A stretch of 64,000 bases of DNA, taken from the NCBI RefSeq assembly GCF_030684315.1, contig NC_081373.1, forward strand, positions 49,986,066-50,050,065, written 5' to 3'. The notes beneath the pieces were generated by a model. That model was given only the letters and a program-made list of their open reading frames with translations. It ran no database searches and was not told the origin of the DNA. Both the position numbers and the translations under genes were made by a program. Shown in pieces: positions 21,795 to 63,200 of this stretch (positions are counted from its first letter, which is position 1; each line of letters begins with the position of its first letter). This stretch comes from Stegostoma tigrinum. Its lineage: Eukaryota.

Positions 21795-22560
21795 GAGTCA
21801 TAGATATGTACAGCATAGAAACAGAGTCTTCAGTCCAATTCACCTGCGCCAACCAAATATCCTAAATTAACCTGCTCCCATCTGTCAGCAGTTAGCCCAA
21901 ATCCTTCTAAACCGTTCCTATTCACATACTCATCCAGATGCCTCTTGTATGCTGTAACTGTACCAGCCTCCACCACTTCCTCTGGCAGCTCATGCTAAAC
22001 ATGCAACACTCTCTGCATGAAAAAGTTCCCCCTTTGGCCCCTTTTATACCTTTCCCCTCTCACTTTAAACCTATGCCCTCCATCCTGGGAAAAAGGCCTT
22101 GGCTATTCACTTTTCTAATGCCTCTCTCATGACTTTATAAACCTCCATAAGGTCACCCGTCAGCCTCCGATGCTCAGGGGAAAAATAGCCCCAGCCTATA
22201 CAGCTTCCCCCGATACCTCAAACCTTCCAACTCCAGCAACATCCATGTAAATATTTTCTGAACTCTTTCAAGTTTTACAATATCTTTCCTATAGCAGGGA
22301 GACCAGAACTGAATGCAGCATTCCAAAAGCAGCCTAATCAACGTCCTGTACAGCCGCAACATGACCTCCCAATTCCTATACTCAATGCACTGTCCAATAA
22401 AGGCAAGCGTACCAAAAGCCTTGATAACAAAGTGTGGAGCTTGATGAACACAGCAGGCCAAGCAGCATCTTAGGAGCAGAAAAGCTGATGTTTCAGGCCT
22501 AGACCCTTCATCTACCTGTGACTCCAGTTGCAAGGAGCTACGAACCTGCACCTCTCAGTC
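21795..22560 (-). mobile_element. CR1 LINE 3' fragment interrupted by a Penelope arm
   Basis: KAFGTLAFIGQCIEYRNWEVMLRLYRTL...CIQFWSPCYRKDIVKLERVQK. Confidence 0.85.
22423..22512 (-). mobile_element. Single Penelope-like terminal arm inserted in a CR1 RT region
   Basis: The family arm sequence interrupts CR1 coding sequence, producing the chimeric ORF 22174-22551. Confidence 0.8.
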
Positions 22561-22696
22561 TCTTTCATCTGCTTAGCTTTCAGGAAGAAATACATAATAC
22601 TCAAATGGAGCCAGCGTCAAAATCAGAAAACAAATGTTAAAGTTACTCCATGACAGGAATAAATACCTAATAGTTAGTCAGCTAAAGTAATTTAGA

Positions 22697-22918
22697 CAAC
22701 GAAATGTGAGGCTGGATGAACACAGCAGGCCCAGCAGCATCTCAGGAGCACAAAAGCTGACGTTTCGAGCCTAGACCCTTCATCAGAGAGCTCTGATGAA
22801 GGGTCTAGGCCCAAAGCGTCAGCTTTTGTGCTCCTGAGATGCTGCTGGGCCTGCTGTGTTCATCCAGCCTCACATTTCGTTATCTTGGATTCTCCAACAT
22901 CTGCAGTTCCCATTATCA
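22697..22918. mobile_element. Short Penelope-like fold-back insertion (same family as 56201-57486)
   Basis: Inverted arms of about 95 bp centred near 22790, plus a tail. The flanking direct repeat CTAAAGTAATTTAGACA lies at 22682-22698 and 22919-22935. Confidence 0.88.
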
Positions 22919-23389
22919 CTAAAGTAATTTAGACATTGTTTAATTTCATAACAAGAAAAACGAAGTTAGCTGAATCATACAACTTATGTAGTAGCTTCAA
23001 AAGCAATGATGATGCCTCACCACAGCATAATCAGACAACACTTACATGGAGCTACATAAGCATCAGGACAGTTGACCCAAACCTGGGTCAAACAGACAGA
23101 ATTTAAGAAATTCCTTCGAGAGGGAGGAAGTTAAGCAGCAAATGTTACTAAGGGGCATCCAGAATTTTAGTGCTAGACAGTTGGAGGTGAATTCTCCCTC
23201 AGGATAAGGTTGGTTTACTTGATTGGAATTGGATCGGTAAGAGGGGAAAGGGATGAGGAAGGAGGGAGGATGTGGGGGTGAGGGAGTAGGGAGAGTGTAG
23301 GGGTGAGGGAAGGAGGAGGAGGGGGAATGTGTTGGTGAGGGGGGAGAGGGAGTGGGTGTGTAGAGAGAAGCAGGGGGCTGGAGGCGGGC

Positions 23390-24460
23390 GAATCAGCGAG
23401 ACGGGGGGGGAACAGGGGTTCAGGGAAGGGGGGAGATCAGGGAAGGGGGGAGATCAGGGAAGGGGGGAGGGGATCAAGGAGGGGATCAGGGAAGGGTGGA
23501 GATCAGGGGCGGGAGGGGATCAGGGAGGCGGAGGGGATCAGGGAGGCGGGGGGGAATCAGGGAAGCGGGGGGGAATCAGGGAAGCGGGGGGGGAATATCA
23601 GGGAAGCGGGGGGGGAATCACGGAAGCGGGGGGGAATCAGGGAAGCGGGGGGGCATCAGGGAAGCGGGGGGCATCAGGGAAGCGGGGGGCATCAGGGAAG
23701 CGGGGGGCATCAGGGAAGCGGGGGGCATCAGGGAAGGCAGGAGGGGGATCAGGGAAGCAGGAGGGAGATCAGGGAATGGGGGAATCAGGGAATGGGGGGA
23801 GATCAGGGAATGGGGGGAGATCAAGGAATGGGGGGAGATCAAGGAATGGGGGGAGATCAGGGAATGGGGGGAGATCAGGGAATGGGGGGAGATCAGGGAA
23901 TGGGGAAGAGATCAGGGAATGGGGGAGAGATCAGGGAATGGGGGAGAGATCAGGGAATGGGGGAGAGATCAGGGAATGGGGGAGAGATCAGGGAATGGGG
24001 GAGAGATCAGGGAATGGGGAGAGATCAGGGAAAGGGGGAGAGATCAGGGAAAGGGGGAGAGATCAGGGAAGGGGGGAGAGATCAGGGAAGGGGGGAGAGA
24101 TCAGGGAAGAGGGGAGAGATCAGGGAAGGGGGGAGAGATCAGAGAAGGGGGGAGAGATCAGAGAAGGGGGGGAGATCAGAGAAAGGGGAAAGATCAGAGA
24201 AAGGGGAAAGATCAGAGAAAGGGGGAGAGATCAGAGAAAGGGGGAGAGATCAGAGAAAGGGGGAGAGATCAGGGAAAGGGGGAGAGATCAGGGAAAGGGG
24301 GAGAGATCAGGGAAAAGGGGAGAGATCAGGGAAGGGGGGGGAGAGATCGGGGAAGGGGGGGAGAGATCGGGGAAGGGGGGGGAGAGATCGGGGAAAGTGG
24401 GAGGGATCAAGGAAGGGAGGAATCAAAGGGGCCAGTGGGGATCGGGGGGATCAAGGCTTC
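23390..24460. repeat. G-rich minisatellite (17-21 bp unit, core ATCAGGGAA plus a G-run) at the start of IPMK intron 1
   Basis: Dozens of tandem units such as GGGGGCATCAGGGAAGC and GGGGGAGAGATCAGGGAAT; strongly purine-skewed on the plus strand. Confidence 0.95.
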
Positions 24461-24631: not shown

Positions 24632-24930
24632 CTCCCGCCCCAGCTCCCTGTCAGTGACCGTGCTCCTAGCCGGCCACAGGCCCGCCGCTCCCGCTCGGCC
24701 GCCGCCGCTGCTGCTGCTGCCGCCGCCGCTTCAAATCCATCGAGAGGCTTCGGGAGCGCGAGCTTCCCCACCCCCTCCCCCGCCCGCTGCCCGCGCGCGC
24801 GCGCACACACACACACCAACCCCCACCCCGCCCGAAAATCCGCTTCCGTGTCCCGCAGGGAGGCCGGAACTGACGGCACCGCGCAGGGGACAGGGCGGTA
24901 GCGCGATGCGAGCACGGATTTGGGGGGTGT
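24632..24930 (-). promoter_or_regulatory. CpG-island promoter and 5'UTR of IPMK
   Basis: Very GC- and CpG-rich directly upstream of the ATG, with ETS-like CGGAAG/CCGGAA cores near 24842-24870, GC boxes and CGG/CAG triplet runs. Confidence 0.75.
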
Positions 24931-24933
24931 GAG

Positions 24934-25575
24934 GTAGAGTAATGCACGGTGAACAGGGGGGTGGAGCAATGCAGCAAGGTGTGGTGGGATAGAGCAATGC
25001 AAGCAGGGTGGTGTGTGGGTGTGGAATAGAGTAATGCAGGCAGGGTGGGTTGCGGGATATGGGATAGAGTAATGCACGGTGAACAGGGGGATGGAGCAAT
25101 GCAGCAAGGTGTGTGTGGGATAGAGCAATGCAGCAAGGTGTGTGGGTGTGGGGTAGAGCAATGCAGGCAGGGTCGGGTGTGGGATAGAGTGATGTGCGGT
25201 GAACGGGAATAGAGCAAAGCAAGCAGGGTGGGGGTGTGGGACAGAGCAATGCACGGTGAACAGCGGGATAGTGTGATGCAAACAGGGTGAGGGTGTGGGA
25301 TAGAGCGATGAAGCTGATCGGGAGGGGAGAGGTCAGGGAACGTGGTGATAGAGCAATGCACCAGGTCCAGGAAAGGATATAGAGAATGCAGCCGTCCTGG
25401 GGTGAAGGGGACATATAATAATGTTGTGTGTCCTATGGGGGTGTGGTAAGCGAACAGGATAATGAAACAAGTCTAGAGGATACACCACTGTAAAGTGTCC
25501 ACGGAGGTACAGCAATGTAACAAGTGCGGGAAAATTGATCTGTGCAAAATGTGCGGGAATAGAGCAATGCAGCAT
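24934..25575. repeat. Degenerate tandem repeat (core ATAGAG(C/T)AATGCA, ~27-40 bp units) upstream of IPMK
   Basis: About 15 recurrences of the core separated by GT-rich spacers; a block starting near 24934 recurs near 25065. Confidence 0.85.
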
Positions 25576-26125
25576 GTTGGAGTATACAGGCGATGGTGCA
25601 ATTCAGAATGTGTATGGAGTATAGACATCTCAGTGTCACATAGCACAGAAGTCGCCTTGGATAGAAGCGTTAGCAGTTTGGTGAATGAGGAAGTTTGGTG
25701 AGGAATGGAAGCTGGGCTCCTTTGGGCCTTTTCACTCTCTGACAACTTGTTTGTATGCCACGTTGGGGGGAAGCAGCTAGCTGTTTGGTGAGTATCTGGT
25801 AAGTGATTAAGCTCTGCTGTGTTCTTGAGGTTTATAATAGCACAGGAACTGGTTGTGGGTTAAATAAAATATGTGTAACATATTGAATAAATGATTTAAA
25901 TAATGTAAGCATGGCGAGTGATACTGTAGCATCTTAGAACTCCTGAATACCATTGTGATGCAGGGTGAGGACATCTACGATCTTTACAGCTCCTAGAGTC
26001 GTAGAGTTCAACTTGGGCAGCTTTGGTTCAGAATTTAGGAGCTGGAGGACAAACTACACAGAGTGCAACACATCAGGAAGAGGTAATGTTACCTAGATAT
26101 TTTTGATAAAGAGCTAGTCTCTCCA

Positions 26126-26351
26126 CTTAAATAAAAAAATGAAAGAACTGCAGATGCTGTAAATCAGGAACAAAAACAAAGTTGCTGGAAAAGCTCAGCA
26201 GGTCTGACAGCAACTGTGATGGAAAAAGCAGAGTTAACGTTTCGGGACCGGTGACCTGAGGAAGGGTCACTGGACACAAAACATTAACTCTGTTTCTTCC
26301 TTCACAGATGCGGCCAGACTTGCTGAGCTTTTCCAGCAACTTCTGTTTTTG
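26126..26351. mobile_element. Fold-back insertion of a second Penelope-like family
   Basis: Arms GTTGCTGGAAAAGCTCAGCA and TGCTGAGCTTTTCCAGCAAC, with the tail on the left. An 11-bp TSD, TAGTCTCTCCA, lies at 26115-26125 and 26352-26362. Confidence 0.85.
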
Positions 26352-27012
26352 TAGTCTCTCCATCTGTCAGTTGCCAAGGAAAAGAGAGGGAGCTACAAGG
26401 GGGTCACCACAGTCAGGGGGATAGACATTGCACCGTCTTGTCAAGAGCATGAGTCAAGAAGTATATGTTATCTGCCCGGTAGCAGGGTTCGGGAAGTGTA
26501 AAGTCCTAGGAACTGGGACTGTGAAAATCCCATTGGTGTGGTCCACGTATTACATTGGTGTGACAAGGAAAGAGATTCTGCTCGGACTGTACAAAAAGCA
26601 AGGCACCAGCTTTAAAAGCAGAACCTGATTATTACCTGAACCAAGTACTCAGGCTCACTGGCAGTAGGGACAGTTGGAGGCTGCACTTTTTGGGACAGTC
26701 TGCACCCAAACTGTTCTGGGGCCAGTGTTCTAGTAAAGCATAAAAATGGGAAGTAGAGAGGCTTTAAACTAAACAATGGGGAATAAGGATCGAGCTTGGT
26801 ACATGTGATATATTAAGAAAAATAATCAAGTAGGGCTTTAAAATAAATAGTGTGTAGGAGTGGGGGAGGATGGGATGTTATGTTGCATGGAAAATTTTAA
26901 AAAGTCAAAGCATTAGGAGAAGGTGGGAGTGCAGGTTACTGATGAGGCTGCTTGTTACCAGAAAATGGCAGAACAGGACAGCTAGTGCATGTCATTTTGT
27001 ATGATCTGTGCT

Positions 27013-29979: not shown

Positions 29980-30920
29980 AGAGAGTATACATAAATGGAT
30001 CTTTTTCTGTATGACAGGATATGATGAGTGGAGTACCACAGGGGTCTGTGCTGGGAATCAACTTTTCATGATTTACGTCAATGACTTAGATGAGGTGAGG
30101 AGAGGCATGTCAGCTAAACTCTCAGATGCTACCAAGGTATGTAGGAAACTGTTGTGATGGGGACGTTAGGAGAATGCAGGTAGTTAGATATAGTAGGAAC
30201 TGCAGGTGCGGGAGAATGAGATAACAAGGTGTAGAGCTGGATGAACGCAGCAGGCCAAGCAGCATCAGAGGAGCAGGAAGGCTGATGTTTCAGGCCTAGA
30301 CGCTTCTTCAGAAAATTCTGAAATGTCAGCCTTCCTGCTCCTTTGCTGCTTGGCCTGCTGTGTTCATCCAGCTCTACACCTTCTTATCTCAGTTATAGAC
30401 AGGTTGTGAATCTACAAAAATCTGTCCAATGATGGATAGTGTGGGAAAATATGAAGTTGTTCACTTTGACAGGTTGATTAAACGTATCAAATATTTCCTA
30501 AATGGATAATGTCTGCAGAATTCCAAGGCGTAGAGGAATCTTGATGTTCTTCTGCATGAGTCACAAGTTCGTGAGTGTGCCCAACAAGTAATCAAGAAGA
30601 CTACTGGAATGCTATCTTTATTTGCAAGAAGAATTGACCATAAATGTGAGGATGTTAGCCGCCTTATGCAGGTCATTTGTGAGATGACATCTCAAATATT
30701 GTGTGTAGTTTTGGTCGCTGGATTTCTGGAAGAATGTAAATACATTGGGGACAGTTCAGAGGAGATTCACGAGATTAATACCTCAAATGAGCAGATTCTT
30801 CTGAGGAGAAGTTGAACACTGGAGTTGAGAAGTGTGAGGGGTAATGTAATTGAGTCAGTATGGAATCCTGAATGGATTGGATAAGGTGGATGTGGAAAGG
30901 ACCGCAGCCTTTGCAGGGGA
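29980..30920 (+). mobile_element. Decayed CR1 RT fragment
   Basis: SGVPQGSVLG...IYVNDLDE motif at 30027-30095. Confidence 0.8.
30191..30390. mobile_element. Penelope-like fold-back insertion (tail on the left) nested in a CR1
   Basis: Same GCTGGATGAACxCAGCAGGCCAAGCAGCATC arm in both orientations; more diverged than the other copies. Confidence 0.8.
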
Positions 30921-30999
30921 TAGAGTAATGAATTCAATGCAGGGAGGGAGAACAATAAAGCCAATATAACTATGTTTCCCAAACATTTACTCATAGTGA

Positions 31000-31187
31000 A
31001 GATAATAAAATGTGAGGCTGGATGAACACAACAGGCCAAGCAGCATCTCAGGAGCACAAAAGCTGACGTTTCGGGACTAGACCCTCCTTCAGAGAGCTCC
31101 TGAGATGCTGCTTGGCCTGCTGTGTTCATCCAGCCTCACATTTTATTATCTTGGAATTCTCCAGCATCTGCAGTTCCCATCATCTCT
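31000..31187. mobile_element. Short Penelope-like fold-back insertion
   Basis: Inverted arms plus a ~35-nt tail. A 16-bp TSD, CATTTACTCATAGTGA, lies at 30984-30999 and 31188-31203. Confidence 0.88.
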
Positions 31188-31439
31188 CATTTACTCATAG
31201 TGACCCTGTTTTGGTGCTTGACAAAGGGAATGACAGAAGCTTTGGGTGAGCAGGCCAGTGGTCTGTGGGAGTGAGCAACCCGAGAGACCTGTGGGGTGAG
31301 GGGAACTGTTTCATTTGTAGAGTTCTTCACCACCTCCACAGGTCATTCAGACTTCAGTGTTCAGACAGTTGGGCCAGTTTCATCACTGATGATATAAAGG
31401 GGCACATAGCTCTTCGTGGTTCCAATCATATCATATACC

Positions 31440-32112
31440 CACACTTCTCTCTAGTCTGCTGCATTCACTGCTCACTATGTGGTCTCGTGTACATCAGGGA
31501 GACAAGGCATTAGACTGGATGACTGCTTCACAGAACATCTACGTTCTGCCAGCGAAAAAGACCCTGAACTTCCAGTTGCCTGACTATTCCACGCACCACA
31601 TTGTTGCCTGGCTAACCTCTTTGTCTCAGGTTTGCTGCAGTGCTCCAGCATTGCTTAGCACAGGCTAGAAGAACAGTATCTCATTTTCCATTTGGAGACC
31701 TTGCAGCCTTCTGGATCCAGTATCAAGTTCAGCACCTTTAGGGCTTGAGGCATGTTCTCCAATGTTCATACCCCAACACCCATGCACCAGGCTTTGATAT
31801 CACAAGGGCTGCTACCACAAACATTGTCAGCCATTAACGGTCCCCATTAGCAGCTATTCATTCTCCCAGGCTGACATTTATTCATTTCTTTCCCTCTGGA
31901 CTTCATCTCAACCTATCATTTACCCTTCCCCTCTCCTCTCCCCCTTCTCTAGCATATATACCAACGTTTTCTTTGCTACTTCCAGTTCTGAGGAAGGGTC
32001 GCCAGACCTGAAATGGTAACTCTGTTTTCTGCCCTCAGGTGCTGCCAGACCTGATTTTTTTTTTTGGAGCAATTTCTGATTTTCTTTCTGATTTCCAGCA
32101 TCTGTGGTTCTT
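31440..32112 (+). mobile_element. Decayed Penelope-like 3' segment with GIY-YIG endonuclease
   Basis: LVCCIHCSLCGLVYIRET has CxxC between GIY- and YIG-like motifs, typical of PLE endonucleases. It is followed by a pyrimidine-rich UTR and a CTGAGGAAGGGTC...GAAA terminus. Confidence 0.8.
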
Positions 32113-33317: not shown

Positions 33318-33410
33318 TGCTCCTGAGATGCTGCTTGGCCTGCTGTGTTCATCCAGCCTCACATTTTATTATCTTGGAATCTCCAGCATCTGCAGTTCCC
33401 ATGATCTCTG
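33318..33410 (+). mobile_element. Single tail-bearing Penelope-like 3' terminus
   Basis: Near-identical to the last ~90 nt of the 56201-57486 element. Confidence 0.85.
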
Positions 33411-34119
33411 AAGGGTACCATGTGCTTGTTTGAAAGATGGTGCCCAAAAATCTAAAATTGGTGTTAGCAGCCTGGAATTCCTTTGTGGAAAGTGTTGGTT
33501 GTATAACAAGCAGTCGGGAAATTTTAAGCAGTTTCTTTCCTTTAAAACTGTGTGCCAAAGTCTTCTTGGAAAGCTTTGCTGGAATGCAATTTCAACTTCA
33601 CCATTTTGCCTTGCAGCGCACAGATAGAATAGCGTTTGACAGCCCAGAAGCTCTCCTTCATATCCTGGAGTTAGGAATTTTGATCAAATAGATGTTGTAT
33701 CGAACAGCACTGACATCTAAACCATCTAGTGTTTCTCGATCTTATATTGAAGACAGCAGTTGAATTCACTGCTATGGGAGTCATATGATGAAGCCAGCTG
33801 GATTGGAACTTGAATGTGGGCCTCCTGGCCTAGAGGAATGGTCACAACTACTAGGCCACAACAGCAATCAAACGTTTTTGTGAGACGAGCGTAATTTGCA
33901 ACTCCGTTGTAATGAGGATTTCTTTCAGAGATAACCATTTCTGTAGCAGATTGTCACACAATAGCGAGCTTTCCAGACTAATCAGGAGGTAGCTGGGTGT
34001 TGATTGGCTGGTATTGACTTCACAGAAGGTTCCAGAACATTATTGACAAGTCCAGTCTCATAATTATAGCAGTCATCTCTGTGGGCTGTTTACTGTATTG
34101 TTAAAAGCCACTAAATCTA

Positions 34120-35004: not shown

Positions 35005-35168
35005 TATATTACTGCAGATGCTGGAGTCTGTACTGAAAACAGAAAAATGCTGGAAATCTCAGCAGATCAGGTAGCATCCTTGGAGAGAGAGCAACCTAAC
35101 ATTTCAAGTCTAGATGACTCTTTATCTGAGCTCTGATATAAAGAGTCATCTAGACTCAACGTTAGCTT
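35005..35168. mobile_element. Penelope-like terminal fragment with a short fold-back
   Basis: GTCTAGATGACTCTTTAT and ATAAAGAGTCATCTAGAC form an inverted pair; a CTGCAGATGCTGG tail lies on the left. Confidence 0.7.
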
Positions 35169-43117: not shown

Positions 43118-43265
43118 CAAGATAACAAAGTGTGGAGCTGGATGAACACAGCAGGCCAAGCAGCATCTTGTGCTCCCGAGATGCTGCTTGGCCTGCTGTG
43201 TTCATCCAGCTCCACACTTTGTTATCTTGGATTCTCCAGCATCTGCAGTTCCCATTATCTCTGAT
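43118..43265. mobile_element. Very short Penelope-like fold-back insertion
   Basis: Perfect inverted arms of about 50 bp plus the family tail TCTCCAGCATCTGCAGTTCCCATTATCTCTG. Confidence 0.85.
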
Positions 43266-44807
43266 AACCTAAACCCATATTACCAGGCTCTTCAATTTGA
43301 GTTTCAGTTGAATTTTTTAAAAAAAGTGATAACAGAGCATCTCACTTCATTTCTCTGGATTGTAAAACCACTAGACTACCCAGTTGCCCTCAAAAGGAAT
43401 TTGACTTTCTTTGCCATGGAAGTTTACATTGACAGTAGTTACAAATCTAAACTGAGAAATAAATAAAGCAAAGAAAAATCAGTGCTCACACAGTATGAGC
43501 AAAGTTGTTTGAGACTAGTGTATGGATTTGTGTCCTAAAACAGTGATGAGCAGAACGATCAAGATAGTTAATGATGCAGGGAAATTAAAAGCATGAGTAT
43601 TGATAAGGATACATGAATGAGGAGACTGTTCAGCCCTTTGAGACTGCTCTGCCATTCAATGAGATTATCCCATAGAGCCTCAGCTCCATATTCTCACTTA
43701 TTCCCAATTACCTTTAACTTCCCCATTAATCAAAAACCTATTCACTTTTGCCTTAAAAACATTCAATGACTCTGAAACTCTCTTCCTCCAGAGTGCAGTG
43801 AAGACAGAGATTCATAACAGAAAAAGATTTTCTTCATTCCAGTCTTAAATAGAAGACTGCATTTTTGTAAACTGTGCTCATTCAGACTACCATTCTTTCA
43901 AACATGGAAATACATACTTCTTTAGTGAATGAAAAGATCTTCAAGAGCAAAGTAATCAGAGTTACGACTTCCCTCTGCCATAAGGCCAGTTTATAATCTT
44001 CCAAACTGGAAGTTGACTGAGAATTGACTTCTTACCTAAAAGTATTTACATGGTACAAAAAAAACTTTCTACATTTATCCAGTTGCTACATTTATGAGCA
44101 CATACAAAAACACTGTTTTACAAATTACCAAGCATACTTGTTTCAAATTGCCCTGCTATTTCCCATTTCCAGATAAGCAAGTACTCAAGTACATTCTAAA
44201 ACACGCATGTTTTACTGGTTCAAGTAAATAAAGAATTGTAGCTGTATAAATTACTTGCATTCAAATACACTGGAGGAAAAAAGTGATCAAACTGATTCAT
44301 GGCTTAAAGTAATTAAGCAAAGAGCAACAAGAGTATTTGCTCTGAAGAAAATGCACAAAGGAAATGTTGTTAAATGGTTTGAATTCTGAAAGATGATTTC
44401 AAAACTGTTCATCTCTCCATCCTAAAGACAGGGCTTATTTTGAAGAAGGGTATTGGATGGGTTTTATTTATATACTTTTAAAAAAGGATGGTGTTGAATA
44501 CGTGCAATGGGTCGACTGGAGAAGCAGATAGCGTGAAAGAGTTTAAATCGTAACTAGTCTGTGGTTTGAGACATTGGGCACATTTGAGTTATTCGGTCTT
44601 AGAGCAGCAGTTATTTTTCCATGGTCATCGAAATCCAAGCTGAAAGAAAGCAGATTATTTTAGACTGGTGCAGAACATCTTTGTGTAAACCTATATTTGG
44701 CCCAAAGCAAAGATCATTAAAACACATTTTGTATTCAAAATTACTTCACTGATGGTAAAGTGGCTTGAGGGACCCAGCAGTCGTAAAAGGTACTATATAT
44801 AAAGTCT

Positions 44808-54060: not shown

Positions 54061-55260
54061 GGTCACTGACTCTGGCAGATTCAAAGGTCATTCAGAAACC
54101 ATTTGGAGTTTGGAAGCCTAGGCAAACAAAAATTTAAGAACAGTCATATCCAAAATCTGAGGCAAAGCCCAGGAAGGCAGATTGAACAGTCAATTATGAC
54201 TGCAGCAAGTGGAAGACGTTTTTAAACACATGATGTTGTCTGTTGTCTTGCAGACTGATATTGTCAGAGACCAATTTGCAACCATATTGGCTACAGAGCA
54301 TTACTGCAAGTGCATCACAGCCATTACATGGAATCATACAGCAAGGAAGCTGTTGAAAATCCAGCTGTATTTCAGCTACATACTGTTGACAAATTTAAAC
54401 GCCTTACATAACAAAGCATAATTCATGTCACACTCCACATTAGTGCCAACTCATTTTTATTAATTCCAATGAGTAATCTGGAATAATTCCCCAGTGAGTT
54501 AAAAGGCTTCTGCAACCTGTGGTTAGTTAACTAACTGATTAGCAGGTTGACACAATTGCAAAATTGAGATACGTATTGTCGATACAATATGTTTAAGTCA
54601 ACATTAGAAAAAATAGAGAACGTATGCTGATTAAACATCACGCCATAACCAGACCTTTTATTCTTACAATATATTTAATGCACTCATTAGTTACTGTGTT
54701 AGCTAATGCACTCCTTATCAACAAGGCCAGGAACATGAGACAGTAAACACATTTTAACAGATTCCTCAGGGCTAAAAGAAAACTTACGGACATGCAGCAA
54801 GGAGACAGCTGTTGATGAGGGAGCAATGTAATCCCGAAGGTGGTTAGGCAGGCTTCAATGTCAGCAGCAGACTAAACTGTTAATAAAATCAGTCAGAGCA
54901 CAGTGGTGAGAATCTACTGACGAAGGAGCACTTGCTGTATCGTCAAGGTAGTCCCACTGTGTTTGAGACAGTGCTGGGGGATGGTGACCAGCTTTGTCGG
55001 GGGGGGTGGGGTGGGGGTGGAGAGGTGGCGGTGACCTTCCCCTCTTGACATGAGTGTAAAGGGCAAATCGCAGCATGCGCCCAGCCCCCAGCTTTCGCAG
55101 CACTTTACCAGCCCCACTGAGGGGTGCCGGGACTGTGTGTGTAGAGGGTGGGGGTGCTATGAAGCCGTGAGCTTCCCCTCCCTCCCCCGGGGTTCCACAG
55201 TACTCTACACCGAGGCCAGGTCCTCACCTACACAAATGGGCCTCCGGCTGCCCCAATTAC

Positions 55261-55285
55261 CTTTTACATTCGGGTAGCTCCCCAT
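55261..55285 (-). CDS. CISD1: CISD1 (mitoNEET) coding exon 1
   Basis: ATG GGG AGC TAC CCG AAT GTA AAA G|gtaatt encodes MGSYPNVK and ends in phase 1. It lies in a CpG island and joins exon 2 in frame (G|AA TGG = E-W). The exon is short, so the call rests on phase and context. Confidence 0.75.
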
Positions 55286-55680
55286 CACTCCGGCTGGTCA
55301 CGCTCCTCTCCCGGCCTCAGGGACAACGGAACCAGTATCGCCGTCCTACAATCACACCATCGAGGGCGTCCCGTTACAGAGGGCAAGGAACACGAGGGGA
55401 GGGAGGAATGGAAGGAACCGGCACGGGACGTCACGCCAGCGGTGCGCAGACTCCGGGACGGCACGCCAGCGGTGCGCAGACTCCCGGCCGGTACGGGACG
55501 TCGCGTGGGTAGTACGGAGTTTCCAAGCCGCCAATGATACCATGTTGTCACTACGCAGACTCTGAGCCGGCACCAACGACACGCCCGGCGAAATCATCCG
55601 GAACTGCGCAAACTCTGGGCCGGCATTGGATTGAGGTCTGAAGGAGGCGTGGTGTCTGGGTGACCTTGCGTTGTCGCAAT
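55286..55680 (-). promoter_or_regulatory. CpG-island promoter and 5'UTR of CISD1
   Basis: CpG-dense, with TGCGCA (NRF1-like) cores, a TGACGTC CRE-like site, CCGGAA and ATTGG elements, and an internal 30-bp tandem duplication. Confidence 0.7.
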
Positions 55681-56200
55681 CTGAAGTGCATTGGAGCAAA
55701 CTACAGCTAGTTTCTCAATTATATCAAAAAACCAAATAGTTAAAGCATTAAAAGTGCAATAGATCATTATTTGAATAGAAATAGTGCGTAGAATTGCAGG
55801 GAGCATGGAATGAAGTGAGCTGCTCACTCAGACAGCTTGTGCAGGCACAATGAATTGAATGGTCACCTTCGGCTCTCTAACGATTCTCAGATCACATTAT
55901 AAAGCAAGATGGAAAATGCAGAATACACCCAGTAGAATTGACAGGGCGAGAAACAAGCGTTAACGTTGCAAGTTGATGAGAAGGAGAAAAGTTTAAGATA
56001 AACCAAAATGAGAAGTAAATGCTATTTTGAGTAACTTTGCAAGGACTCATGCACGCATAAGGGATCCATTGAATTTAGTAATTGGCAGTCACACAATTGC
56101 CAGAGGAAGAAAAACATAAAAACTCTGTCCAGTTAAGGAATAAAAGTTGAAACAAATGTAATGCTGATAACATAGTGAAACATGAGTATTTAAAAAGCAT

Positions 56201-57486
56201 AATAAAATGTGAGGCTGGATGGACACAGCAGGCCAAGCAGCATCTCAGGAGCACAAAAGCTGACGTTTCGGGCCTAGACCCTTCATCAGAGAGGGGGATG
56301 GGGGGAGGGAGCTGGAATAAATAGGGAGAGAGGGGGAGGCGGACCGAAGATGGAGAGTAAAGAAGATAGGTGGAGAGGGTGTAGGTGGGGAGGTAGGGAG
56401 GGGATAGGTCAGTCCAGGGAAGACGGACAGGTCAAGGAGGTGGGATGAGGTTAGTAGGTAGCTGGGGGTGCGGCTTGGGGTGGGAGGAAGGAATGGGTGA
56501 GAGGAAGAACCGGTTAGGGAGGACTGGACTGGTTGGACTGGTTTTGGGATGCAGTGGGTGGGGGGGAAGAGCTGGGCTGGTTGTGTGGTGCAGTGGGGGG
56601 AGGGGATGAACTGGGCTGGTTTAGGGATGCAGTAGGGGAAGGGGAGATTTTGAAACTGGTGAAGTCCACATTGATACCATATGGCTGCAGGGTTCCCAGG
56701 CGGAATATGAGTTGCTGTTCCTGCAACCTTCGGGTGGCATCATTGTGGCAGTGCAGGAGGCCCATGATGGACATGTCATCAAGAGAATGGGAGGGGGAGT
56801 GGAAATGGGAGGGGGAGTTTGCGACAGTCGCAAACCATTTCCACTCCCCCTCCCATTCTCTTGATGACATGTCCATCATGGGCCTCCTGCACTGCCACAA
56901 TGATGCCACCCGAAGGTTGCAGGAACAGCAACTCATATTCCGCCTGGGAACCCTGCAGCCATATGGTATCAATGTGGACTTCACCAGTTTCAAAATCTCC
57001 CCTTCCCCTACTGCATCCCTAAACCAGCCCAGTTCATCCCCTCCCCCCACTGCACCACACAACCAGCCCAGCTCTTCCCCCCCACCCACTGCATCCCAAA
57101 ACCAGTCCAACCTGTCTCCGCCTCCCTCACCGGTTCTTCCTCTCACCCATTCCTTCCTCCCACCCCAAGCCGCACCCCCAGCTACCTACTAACCTCATCC
57201 CACCTCCTTGACCTGTCCGTCTTCCCTGGACTGACCTATCCCCTCCCTACCTCCCCACCTACACCCTCTCCACCTATCTTCTTTACTCTCCATCTTCAGT
57301 CCGCCTCCCCCTCTCTCCCTATTTATTCCAGCTCCCTCCCCCCATCCCCCTCTCTGATGAAGGGTCTAGGCCCGAAACGTCAGCTTTTGTGCTCCTGAGA
57401 TGCTGCTTGGCCTGCTGTGTTCATCCAGCCTCACATTTTACTATCTTGGAATCTCCAGCATCTGCAGTTCCCATTATCTCTGATAC
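56201..57486. mobile_element. Penelope-like retroelement 3' end in inverted (fold-back) duplication
   Basis: Arms of about 620 bp with the centre at 56826. Each arm encodes the C-terminal part of a GIY-YIG endonuclease (HFHSPSHSLDDMSIMGLLHC...RRLQEQQLIFRLGTLQPYGINVDF). A 14-bp TSD, TATTTAAAAAGCAT, lies at 56187-56200 and 57487-57500. Confidence 0.9.
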
Positions 57487-58004
57487 TATTTAAAAAGCAT
57501 CTTTCACAACCTAAGGATATCCTGAAGTGTTTTACAGCCAGTTTTTATTCATTGGTGCTAGAATTTTTGAATGGTGACCTCAGTGACCTGTTCGAGGTCT
57601 TCAAATTTTTTAGGTAACTTAATAGTTTAAATTGTCACAGGTTGTGTCTAAGGTTCAGAGACACAGTAATGATGTGTCACAAGTTTTAAAAAATTACACC
57701 AAAGAATTAAAAAGTATATTGGCATTTTATTTTACATGGGTGGTTGGAGAATTCCCTTGTTTCAAATCACTGTTGAAGTTGAACATATGATTATTTATAG
57801 GGGAAGTGAAGAGTTTTGCAAAATAGGAATATTAATGGGTATGGGGTGCATACAGAAATGAAAAATACTGGATGACTCATGAGGGGGAAAAGAATCTCAA
57901 AACTGAAGAGCGGTTTGATTGCTATGACAGTTCACGTTTCTGTCAAATCAATGTAAGGTTAGTTTGGAAGTGACCACAAAGTGGGACATACTGAGGGTCA
58001 TGTT

Positions 58005-60649: not shown

Positions 60650-61150
60650 CTAGAAACAGAAAACTGCAGATGCTGGGATCCGAGGTAGACAAATAGGAGG
60701 CTGGAAAAATGCAGCAAGATGGGCAGCACCTGGAGAAAAGGAGCAGTCAACATTTTGGGTGTTACCCTTCTTCAAGACTAGATGTGGGGTTAGGGGGTGC
60801 TGCAAATATAGAGGGGGAGGTGTGTGGAATGGTGGTGATAGGTGCACACTGGTAGTAGGTATGACGTGGTTGGATGATGGAAGGGATAAATCTGGATTGT
60901 GACTGGGAGTGTCAGAAGGTAGAATAGAATGGAAGGGAGGTGGTGGGGCTGGAAAGGGAGCCAGAATGTCGGTGGGAAAGTTGTTTGAAATTGGAGAACT
61001 CAGTGTTGAGCCGTACAGGCTGTAGGGTGCTCAGGCAGAAGGTGTTGTTCTTAAAATTTGCATTCTGAATTGCTGCAACACTGGGGGAGGCCAAGGACGG
61101 ACATGTCAAAGGGGCATTGGGATGGGGAGTTGAAATGGGCGGTGAGTGGA
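60650..61150 (-). mobile_element. Decayed Penelope-like 3' segment
   Basis: LSTLQPVRLNTEFSNFK endonuclease tail, a C/T-rich UTR and a CCAGCATCTGCAG terminus on the minus strand. Confidence 0.75.
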
Positions 61151-62643
61151 AAGGCTGATCCTATTGGGTAGATCCATGAGCAGGCTGTCAAAGTCATTTG
61201 GCAGAATGTCTGATTGCCAAAACTTTGTGAAAAGCACAAGACGTCGCTTGGGTGGACCTGAGAAGGGTACCAACTGTCAGATCCTACACGCACACCCAGT
61301 CTCTGTGTGCCACTGCATGCTGCCCTCAATGCAGCTGTGAGGGGTTGAGGGGATAGAGACTTACATCACCTTCTAGAATATGCCCTTCAAAGAAGGTCTG
61401 GAGAGTTGCAGTGGCTTTTGTTGAGGTTCATCCCAAGCAGCCCTATTATACAGAACTCTGTGCTGCAAGGGCTGTTTCCTGGGATGCACACCAAGAGGAC
61501 TGACCTTGGTGAGAAACACACTTTGGTCTGCTGGAAACTTCTTGATCTTTCAGTATAAAGAGTTGGCCTCAACTGATTGTTACAGACTGGCACATTCCGG
61601 TAATACACGCTAAGGGACACACTAAAGCTTGGGGAGCTACTGCCAAGACGCAGTCTAGGGTCTTTTTGCAAAAATAGAATGAGGGTCCATTTGGTTCAGA
61701 CCCTCTTGGTGCCTCCAAAATAAACAAAAAAGCTGCCTGCGTCACTAGGAAATGCCTTGGCTTTTTGCAATTGTACAGAAACTCTGAAAAAATGCCAAAT
61801 TTCCAATGTTTTGTGTAGTTTTCTCTCTGCAAAGACTGTACAGACATAACTTAGAGCATTTGTATGCACTTATAGATGATTTTAAAGTATAAAGCATAGT
61901 TTTGAAATAAAAACTGTGACCAGCTTAATAGTTTATGTAATGTAGTAAACTTCATAAAACTCACTTAAAAAGCCTCTGCTTGATAGGGCTTTTGAAGTGT
62001 AACATAGGCAGCAGCCAATTTGTGCACATCAAGCTCCCCCAGAAATATGATATATCTTATAATTGATTTGATTAATGTTGATTGAGGCCCATTTCAACTC
62101 CCTGCTCTTAATGTTACAGGATCTTTTATAACCACCTTAACGAACAGAGCAAACACTTGTTTTAACAGCTCATCTAAAGGATAGCTCCTCCGAGAAAGCT
62201 GCACTTCACAGCAACACACTGGAATGCCAGCCTAGATTTTGGTGCTACAGACTCTGGAACAGAAACTGAAACCACAGTTCTGGCTTGGAGGGGAAAGTAC
62301 TATCCAGACGGGCAGAATCCTTGTGTCCATTTAGACTGAGATATATAGATTCTTGATTAGTAGGGGAATCAAGGGTTATGGAAAAGGGTGAGGAATGTTG
62401 GAACTGCAATGATGCTATTGAATGACACAGCAGGCTCGAGGGGATGTTCCTATTTCTTAGGTTTTATGGATCACAGCTGATACCGATGATTGAGGGGGAA
62501 AATAACAAGAGTTATGTTGATGGGATTGGTGGAATTAATGGAATATGGAAAAGGAGGGGTAGCAATGGCCTAGTGGTATATTGCTAGATTGTTCGTCCAC
62601 AAAATCAGCTGGTGTTCTGGGTAACCAAGTTCAAATCCTGCCA

Positions 62644-62792
62644 TAGTAGACAAACAGGAGGCTGGAAGAACACAGGAAGCCAGGCAACAGCTGGAGGAAA
62701 GAAGTCAATACAGGTAACAAAGTGTAGAGCTGGATGAACACAGCAGGCCAAGCAGGAAAGCTGACATTTTGGGTTTAGACCCTTCTTCAGAA
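62644..62792 (-). mobile_element. Two adjacent Penelope-like terminal fragments upstream of the UBE2D promoter
   Basis: 62715-62792 matches the main family arm; 62644-62710 resembles the end of the 60650 element. Confidence 0.6.
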
Positions 62793-63176: not shown

Positions 63177-63200
63177 ATGGCCAAGAGACGGATAGAAAAG
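63177..63200 (+). CDS. UBE2D1: UBE2D-family ubiquitin-conjugating enzyme, coding exon 1 (probably UBE2D1)
   Basis: ATG GCC AAG AGA CGG ATA GAA AAG|gtaaag encodes MAKRRIEK. The 24-nt phase-0 exon matches the UBE2D first exon (MALKRIxK). It lies in a CpG island, and IPMK-CISD1-UBE2D1 is the known vertebrate neighbourhood. Only 8 codons are visible. Confidence 0.65.

Follow-up and report, generated by a model that had tools for sequence, protein, structure and literature searches.

The sequence at positions 56187 to 57500 of the 64-kb window (the whole stretch of DNA that was analysed, 64,000 nucleotides) is a real palindrome, made almost certainly of fragments of an abundant shark Penelope-like retroelement. 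Bounded by a TSD, the insert consists of two 3' fragments arranged head to head, and it likely arose in a single event, with both cut target strands priming reverse transcription on one broken RNA. The locus is a new, unusually long example of an insertion type that has already been described. Its parts are as follows.

56187-56200, plus strand: left TSD, 14 bp, AT-rich, exact repeat; its last 2 nt pair with the element
56201-56825, minus strand: left arm, an inverted, tail-less, 5'-truncated copy of the 3' end of the element
56825-56827, no strand: head-to-head junction, with C56825 compatible with either arm (1-nt microhomology) and A56826 templated solely by the right arm
56826-57442, plus strand: right arm, with the GIY-YIG C-terminal coding end (56827-57027), proline-rich 39-nt repeats and the 3' repeat (pLTR)
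57443/45-57486, plus strand: tail, 42-44 nt, on the right arm only, with no partner at the left end
57487-57500, plus strand: right TSD, exact repeat of the left TSD

The strict arms (56201-56825 against 56827-57442, with the single base A56826 in the middle) were recovered by a repeat search together with a global alignment, in agreement with the near-perfect palindrome proposed by an earlier, sequence-only reading of this DNA. An inverted-repeat search paired 56199-56808 with 56835-57444 (610 nt, 99% complementary), and the global alignment reached the centre, where 8 paired bases flank A56826 on each side. Positions 56199-56200 pair with 57443-57444 too, yet are part of the TSD, and thus form a 2-nt microhomology. 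The entire insert is palindrome, with no full ORF or partial tandem separating the arms, which differ by four substitutions and two templated patches, both patches being in the left arm. No fold-backs were found in 10 Markov control sequences (64 kb each, with the dinucleotide make-up of the window). The palindrome had also been called spacer-less; pairing does run up to A56826, but the predicted DNA fold at the centre has a 7-bp stem and a 3-nt loop followed by a 9-nt bulge, which comes from an insert in the left arm, so that the centre is no longer perfectly symmetric.

The TSD, TATTTAAAAAGCAT, is found at 56187-56200 and 57487-57500, and brackets the element exactly as had been claimed. Such a repeat arose by chance in 1 of 20,000 random paired windows; 11 of its 14 letters are A or T, with one more T-rich flank. 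The extra tail of about 40 nt that had been noticed on the right arm was found there at 42-44 nt, and recurs in copies at 22791-22920, 31096-31190, 33318-33411 and 43168-43266.

The Penelope-like origin, likewise proposed from the letters, was upheld by protein matches, by a GIY-YIG match on a relative and by a hammerhead core in both arms. Of 14 candidate proteins, 11 were matched by the 62-aa fragment that opens the right arm, the best matches being a Stegostoma tigrinum record (P0001, 97%) and a Rhincodon typus record (P0002, 90%), which makes a carpet shark the likely host. The arms encode residues 333-399 of P0001 (97%), and tblastn of the left arm returned residues 333-399 and 404-522. 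P0002, a full-length relative, scored 23.2 bits against the Pfam GIY-YIG family (cut-off 22.6); P0001 scored 18.9 bits, under the 22.6 cut-off, and the 121-aa arm translation alone matched 0 Pfam families. Both relatives carry YIDD with a weak RVT_1 match (E 9e-5, under cut-off), and the RT portion is absent from the 56201-57442 copy through truncation. The C-terminal GIY-YIG, the adjacent inverted 5'-truncated copy, the tail at one end and the short AT-rich TSD are all features of EN+ Penelope-like elements. A 28-nt family motif gave 0 matches in metagenomes.

With respect to clade, residues 318-326 of P0002 form a CX4CX2C linker, which is decayed in P0001 and lies outside the 56201-57442 copy. 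According to the portion of PMC8557442 that covers clade features, a zinc-finger-like CX2-5CxxC linker between RT and EN marks Neptune/Nematis and is missing in Penelope/Poseidon. Judged by these residues, the family appears to carry the Neptune/Nematis linker motif, and so lacks the linker absence of Penelope/Poseidon.

Other identities were tried and rejected. MITE/Foldback DNA transposons have symmetric terminal inverted repeats abutting both TSDs and a constant TSD length; such an element was rejected on the 44-nt asymmetric tail, the TSDs of 11-17 bp among copies and the variable centres. A microRNA precursor was rejected, as the 41 Rfam matches on 56000-57700 were all under the gathering threshold and hairpin-driven. 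In L1 twin priming the inverted and direct pieces are non-overlapping and there is a poly(A) end. An L1-type twin-priming inversion was rejected, since here the same 616 nt are copied twice, as both arms, and there is no poly(A). The insertion does share with L1 twin priming and with L1-induced inverted duplications (the latter in 10.1101/2024.12.14.628481) the priming of both target ends on one RNA (here proposed), a preserved TSD and an inverted piece on the 5' side.

The fold-back layout is a routine product of the family. A scan of the 64 kb found seven fold-backs including the CISD1-side copy, the others being as follows.

22694, 30186, 30999 and 43118: shorter fold-backs of the same family
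26134 and 35107: related fold-backs of older sequence

Because the family makes fold-backs routinely, and the window has six others, only arm length sets the locus apart: about 620 nt at 56201-57442 against 25-100 nt in the other fold-backs of the window. A TSD is present in four of the seven (14, 17, 16 and 11 bp), and no clear TSD was seen at 30186-30391, 35107-35156 or 43118-43266. Exactly one tail was found in all six assessable fold-backs, the seventh being too decayed; the probability of this is at most 0.016 if the arms picked their start independently. The tail-less arm extends further upstream in three of six copies (by about 2, 9 and 41 nt) and the tailed arm in the other three (by 1, 10 and 21 nt), the sample for offsets and tails being these six copies only, of which the short ones are bounded by the 5' end of the repeat. 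Opposite-strand joints near 56269-56288, close to the hammerhead, also appeared in another sample, at 349, 226 and 98 raw reads; these strand-switch joints are from a bisulfite library at 80% likeness, where library chimeras could mimic fold-backs.

Penelope-like insertions typically carry an inverted 5'-truncated copy and a tail at one side only, according to the passages of PMC3846280, PMC8557442, PMC2377424 and PMC8969392 that describe them, and the likeness to known Penelope-like insertions stated in the sequence-only reading is borne out by the same layout in PMC3846280 and PMC8557442. Complex insertions of EN+ Penelope-like elements share the head-to-head inverted copy, the palindromic junction and the one-sided tail (PMC3846280, PMC8557442, PMC2377424), as well as the short TSD in AT-rich DNA, the C-terminal GIY-YIG and the 3'-repeat hammerhead. 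The present insertion differs in its arms of about 620 nt, the 1-nt offset, the two templated patches and the fact that the palindrome is the whole insert, and its tail (42-44 nt) and TSD (14 bp) are slightly above the published 30-40 nt and 8-10 bp (PMC3846280, PMC8557442, PMC2377424). No paper on shark Penelope palindromes was found in the literature search, some subscription papers being outside its reach.

As to the mechanism, we lean slightly towards one RNA having been primed twice, from both target strands. This reading draws on the anole Poseidon enzyme, which in the main text of PMC11167929 cuts AT-rich DNA, extends both strands, is a predicted dimer and initiates at a pair of internal sites, one at each end of the tail, which were used alike on both strands in vitro. 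By analogy, a 14-nt staggered cut in AT-rich DNA would leave two 3' ends, one of which would prime at the far end of the tail and produce the right arm, while the other would prime at the near end of the tail, through a 2-nt homology to the TSD, and produce the tail-less left arm. Some 620 nt upstream, synthesis of both cDNAs would stop at the 5' end of the one RNA, and the two would then be joined through one shared base. The left-arm patches would represent slip-and-rejoin synthesis, either at integration or in later break repair.

A single event is indicated because the TSD encloses both arms, together with one tail in six of six fold-backs, and one template because both arms share minority alleles and their inner ends are 1 nt apart on 620-nt arms. 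These alleles are at 56492 (98% of the family depth in run X1 differs), 56681 (79% differs) and 56511. Upstream of the centre the family sequence continues with a C; since this equals C56825, one junction base is shared and the right arm is 1 nt longer than the left. Family loose ends just before 56825 numbered 255 in X1 and 11 in X5.

The shark family resembles Anolis Poseidon (PAc) in the two start sites bounding the tail, the extension of both strands (here inferred), the AT-rich target and the hammerhead in the pLTR (PMC11167929). Against the proposal, the enzyme data are from another clade, PAc being of the Poseidon clade (PMC11167929) and P0002 having the Neptune/Nematis linker that is absent in Poseidon. 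Moreover, use of both sites on both strands in vitro does not itself force one tail. A later central deletion could create the offsets, and arm-to-arm conversion could create the shared alleles.

Self-priming, in which copying starts from the folded-back end of the first cDNA or of an antisense template and the endonuclease then resolves the hairpin at the tail boundary, is unlikely but has the next best claim. It is the published reading of head-to-head Penelope-like junctions, an antisense template for the inverted copy having been proposed by Arkhipova et al. 2013 (PMC3846280, in the sections on such junctions), and it would account at once for the identical alleles, the near-coincident inner ends and the one tail. 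DNA ends made by L1 are described as sites of small-hairpin inverted duplications (10.1101/2024.12.14.628481, in part), and the 9-nt insert is located where a hairpin tip would be opened. A simple snap-back is disfavoured because the tail-less arm reaches further upstream in three of the six copies and because a 1-nt loop, at 56826, would be needed here, whereas hairpin loops take 4-6 nt (PMC7999016, in its treatment of hairpins); central nicking and repair would then have to leave the offsets. In addition, RT starts at the tail boundary in vitro, and both strands are extended (PMC11167929).

An improbable variant would have each target end copy its own RNA, both RNAs stemming from a single source locus, with the inner ends brought into register by joining, trimming or conversion. 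The predicted dimer could carry two RNAs (PMC11167929), the shared alleles require just one source locus, and L1 ends extended on different mRNAs are described in part of 10.1101/2024.12.14.628481. The 1-nt offset on arms of 620 nt and the one tail in six of six fold-backs argue against it and are the observations that the copying of one RNA from both strands would explain. No paper on a Penelope-like element copying one RNA from both strands was found, with some subscription papers and the supplements of PMC11167929 outside the search.

The differences between the arms include two templated patches.

56523-56530, minus strand: 8-nt replacement in the left arm, copied from a neighbouring short repeat
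56809-56817, minus strand: 9-nt templated insertion in the left arm, 8 nt from the centre, making a 15-nt direct repeat with 18-nt spacing

Two patches beside four substitutions is a high ratio compared with usual mutation spectra. The substitutions are the pairs 56202/57441, 56222/57421, 56345/57298 and 56515/57128, and according to family reads, P0001 and other window copies the changed base is in the left arm at 56222 and in the right arm at 57128, 57298 and 57441, that at 57298 being a CpG transition. The 9-nt insert near 56809-56817 had been noticed earlier and was confirmed in the left arm by the global alignment. Of the rewritten patch that had been placed at 56515-56530, the 8-nt replacement at 56523-56530 stands, but 56515 is outside the patch; since the family agrees with the left arm there, 56515/57128 is a right-arm change.

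The 9-nt insert repeats sequence 18 nt off, with homologies of 5 nt and 2 nt, and the 8-nt replacement duplicates the adjoining short unit twice. Family reads stop at 56522/56527 and at 56808, i.e. at both patches, and at the 8-nt patch they agree with the right arm; because they break off there, both patches are private or rare. Neither patch was seen among the read joints and pieces listed, and the patches could be assembly errors, the reads having shown neither. They fit SD-MMEJ-type loop-out synthesis, or slippage at integration. As in the SD-MMEJ loop-out junctions described in part of PMC5728401, both patches add letters that create new direct repeats, and the homologies for priming and rejoining are short; they are indistinguishable from reverse-transcriptase or second-strand slippage at integration.

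A motif scan identified a hammerhead candidate in each arm, beside a possible promoter element.

56262-56289, minus strand: left-arm minimal hammerhead motif, cut predicted at 56262/56261
57354-57381, plus strand: right-arm minimal hammerhead motif, cut predicted at 57381/57382
57320-57326, plus strand: TATA-like box, 27-33 nt ahead of 57350-57353, where several short copies start; mirrored in the left arm

Both motifs have the core boxes, the extra base after position 9, G10.1-C11.1 and a palindromic 15.2-16.2, which are all four traits listed in the relevant part of PMC4209133, and the arms are thus predicted to contain a minimal hammerhead ribozyme in the pLTR. No hammerhead family of Rfam matched 56000-57700. 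Stem II of the right-arm hammerhead was present in the predicted fold with a z-score that was not significant, and folding of three 3'-end pieces gave z-scores of 0.13 to 0.71, indicating a stability that is not unusual. Five short arms in the window begin at 57350-57356, and many contigs break off at 56290, the mirror of that start point. From its letters and position the TATA-like box is a possible outward-facing pLTR promoter in both arms, the left one pointing toward CISD1. Because the Drosophila Penelope promoter is internal and TATA-less (PMC2377424, in its account of that promoter), the TATA promoter reading is not general and serves as a lead only.

In run X1, three joints (depths 339, 315 and 187) exit the reference at 56261 and re-enter at 56199 via 4-6 tail letters. 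They are 3 among 12 listed of the 422 X1 rows, and one of the three is without any shared base. As a lead, these joints may represent tandem copies that begin with the base directly behind the predicted ribozyme cut and are linked there to the near start site. The main text of the anole study (PMC11167929) leaves inverted copies unexplained and detected no RNA ends at its ribozyme cut site, whereas the shark family has junctions that start at its own predicted cut. In vivo evidence for such hammerhead cleavage is missing according to the pertinent part of PMC4209133, and ribozyme-cut junctions, if true, would supply it. The literature search found no paper on copy ends of Penelope-like elements at a ribozyme cut, with some subscription papers and the PMC11167929 supplements outside its reach; retrozyme background is given in part of the preprint 10.64898/2026.07.22.740005.

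Reads from 4 of 23 runs were mapped on 55000-56870, a stretch that takes in the left flank and left arm and ends 44 nt beyond the centre. The joints and pieces listed from this mapping include neither the centre junction nor the right junction, the latter lying beyond the mapped stretch. A contig of X1 spans 55000-56228 without differences, joining the left flank to the inverted arm; it holds 28 element letters, which is under the 31-letter rule, and X1 (same species label) may be the assembled sample. The contig stops where a 31-mer loses the last flank-specific base (56198), as expected for a high-copy repeat, and has no branch at the TSD, which suggests that the X1 run is without an empty allele. 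In the bisulfite run X21 (1 in 100 reads), where the flank has a depth of 0-11, none of the loose ends listed corresponds to an empty allele; the methylation signal of this copy merges with that of the whole family.

In organism B (run X15), a contig matches 55966-56200 and then has 7 unaligned letters, which the 30-nt overlaps of neighbouring contigs place past 56200, the last base of the TSD. It seems that the insertion is absent from organism B, the contig ending as at an empty site. The flank of B differs at 34 of 624 positions (three contigs), and the arms differ from each other at 4 of about 616. The insertion is therefore likely young, and the recent origin that had been claimed is supported by these few arm differences and by the B match ending at the last TSD base. 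Because 4 of about 616 compares with 34 of 624, its age would be about one tenth of the split from B if the arms began identical and were unconverted, the numbers being small; arm-to-arm conversion could give a falsely young age.

The insertion is located next to a gene that reads away from it.

55261-55496, minus strand: CISD1 exon 1, ATG at 55285, donor at 55261/55260, within a CpG island

CISD1 is a three-exon gene on the minus strand, and its ATG is 916 nt from the element, in keeping with the distance of about 0.9 kb given earlier. A contig of X5, covering 55261-55496, has one end precisely at the exon-1 donor, which places the apparent 5' end of CISD1 near 55496, about 700 nt from the element. 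Exon 2 matched MitoNEET_N and was closer to solved CISD1 chains (E 3e-20) than to CISD2 (2e-11), and exon 3 alone had no match in Pfam. Within a second CpG island, 5.7 kb from the element, 63177-63200 (plus strand) holds 8 codons with a donor; from the resemblance of these codons it is a putative UBE2D.

By analogy, fragility at the locus is plausible. Long near-identical arms with a short spacer carry a risk of fork stalling and breakage, and closely spaced inverted Alu pairs share these arms and the very short spacer (as set out in part of PMC7999016). The shark palindrome differs from them in having been born in a single insertion, in the 9-nt bulge at its centre and in being known from its sequence alone. 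The two templated patches could be repair scars and are the sole hint of fragility here; against it, the centre is already asymmetric through the 9-nt insert.

There is no support for dsRNA from a transcript through both arms, or for regulation of CISD1, and the insertion is most likely a tolerated passenger beside this gene. The X5 contig is exon-limited at CISD1, with no depth over 55504-56196, a gap that does not count against read-through; the type of X5 is not recorded as RNA, and its high depth on the element stems from the whole family. It is very improbable that the palindrome is kept for a CISD1 function, whether through read-through long dsRNA or through a left-arm upstream promoter aimed at CISD1. 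The distance of about 700 nt, the unbranched X1 contig and the orientation of the left-arm TATA-like box and hammerhead toward CISD1 would fit such a role. However, the insertion is apparently missing in organism B, the family produces such forms everywhere, and the Drosophila Penelope promoter is internal and TATA-less (PMC2377424); the putative pLTR promoters would not yield dsRNA because they face away on both arms, and thus would not transcribe both.

An assembly or read artefact can practically be dismissed: the centre junction was, like the patches, missing among the read joints and pieces listed, and X1 is possibly the assembled sample, but the TSD is exact and set in two distinct unique flanks, the six differences between the arms can be sorted by the family consensus (one left and three right substitutions), a short-read contig links the flank with the inverted arm, and six further copies share the layout, four of the seven with a TSD.

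The locus itself is of little importance unless breakage or an effect on CISD1 is demonstrated. As a specimen it bears on how Penelope-like elements produce an inverted copy and a tail, for which self-priming has been proposed (PMC3846280) and the second-strand steps are unvalidated in the main text of PMC11167929. With arms of this length, the agreement of the inner ends carries information, and the family has enough copies for genome-wide counts of offsets, tails and shared alleles. A joint reading, which is tentative and would combine one RNA copied twice per fold-back, ribozyme-cut tandem junctions and scars of palindrome breaks, would have further consequences. If true, every fold-back would record the physical 5' end of its RNA, and the tandem junctions at the hammerhead cut would be a genomic footprint of in vivo ribozyme cleavage during retrotransposition. 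The long copy, with two repair-like scars in 620 nt against four substitutions in both arms, would then document the natural breakage of a palindrome next to a housekeeping promoter.

The window contains six further, shorter fold-backs, which belong to the same element or to related ones, together with single-arm copies, older open reading frame remnants and G-rich degenerate tandem arrays. The two remnants were 42–46% identical to P0001 and P0002, related Penelope-like proteins recorded from Stegostoma tigrinum and Rhincodon typus.

22682-22935, shorter fold-back
26115-26362, shorter fold-back
30186-30391, shorter fold-back
30984-31203, shorter fold-back (the 30999 fold-back)
35107-35156, shorter fold-back
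43118-43266, shorter fold-back
22423-22512, single-arm copy
33318-33411, single-arm copy
62712-62791, single-arm copy
31476-31742, + strand, older Penelope-like ORF remnant
61036-61152, - strand, older Penelope-like ORF remnant
23364-24447, G-rich degenerate tandem array
24920-25314, G-rich degenerate tandem array

CISD1 (55285, - strand) and the UBE2D-like first exon (63177, + strand) lie head to head, 7.9 kb apart. We take human CISD1 and UBE2D1 to be arranged in tandem, and human UBE2D3 is presumably faced by CISD2, not CISD1. The repeat search detected a 30-nt tandem duplication (55424-55483, copies 97% alike) in the CISD1 5' leader/CpG island. Nearby, reads of organism B (X15) aligned to 55000-56870 gave no depth across 55504-55629.

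Five short arms in the window start 27–33 nt past a TATA-like box, immediately ahead of the hammerhead, and many contigs from X1 (the run with the same species label), X5 (the run with a CISD1 exon-limited contig) and X15 start likewise. This shared position is possibly the transcription start of the Penelope-like repeat.

57320-57326, right arm (+), TATA-like box
57350-57356, right-arm coordinates, begin points of the short arms
56290-56323, left-arm mirror of both

At the 56808 loose end, the family consensus from the bisulfite run X21 retained one unconverted CpG while the remaining cytosines were converted, suggesting methylation of this CpG at the level of the family; the signal is not specific to this locus. 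In a different X21 loose-end consensus the CpGs were converted.

Among the joints listed for X1, family joints 56261 -> 56199 had depths of 339, 315 and 187. These positions mirror 57382 and 57444-57450 in the right arm. The joints are tandem junctions in which the downstream copy begins at the first base past the predicted hammerhead cut and the upstream copy ends at the nearer of the two tail boundaries; the resulting unit would be about 68 nt long.

In the 30999 fold-back (junction at 31096-31098), one arm reaches the 5' end of the repeat and the other is 41 nt shorter. Because the same junction recurs in X1 contigs (joint 56291 -> 56252, depth 151), it may arise repeatedly, or may be copied as one unit.
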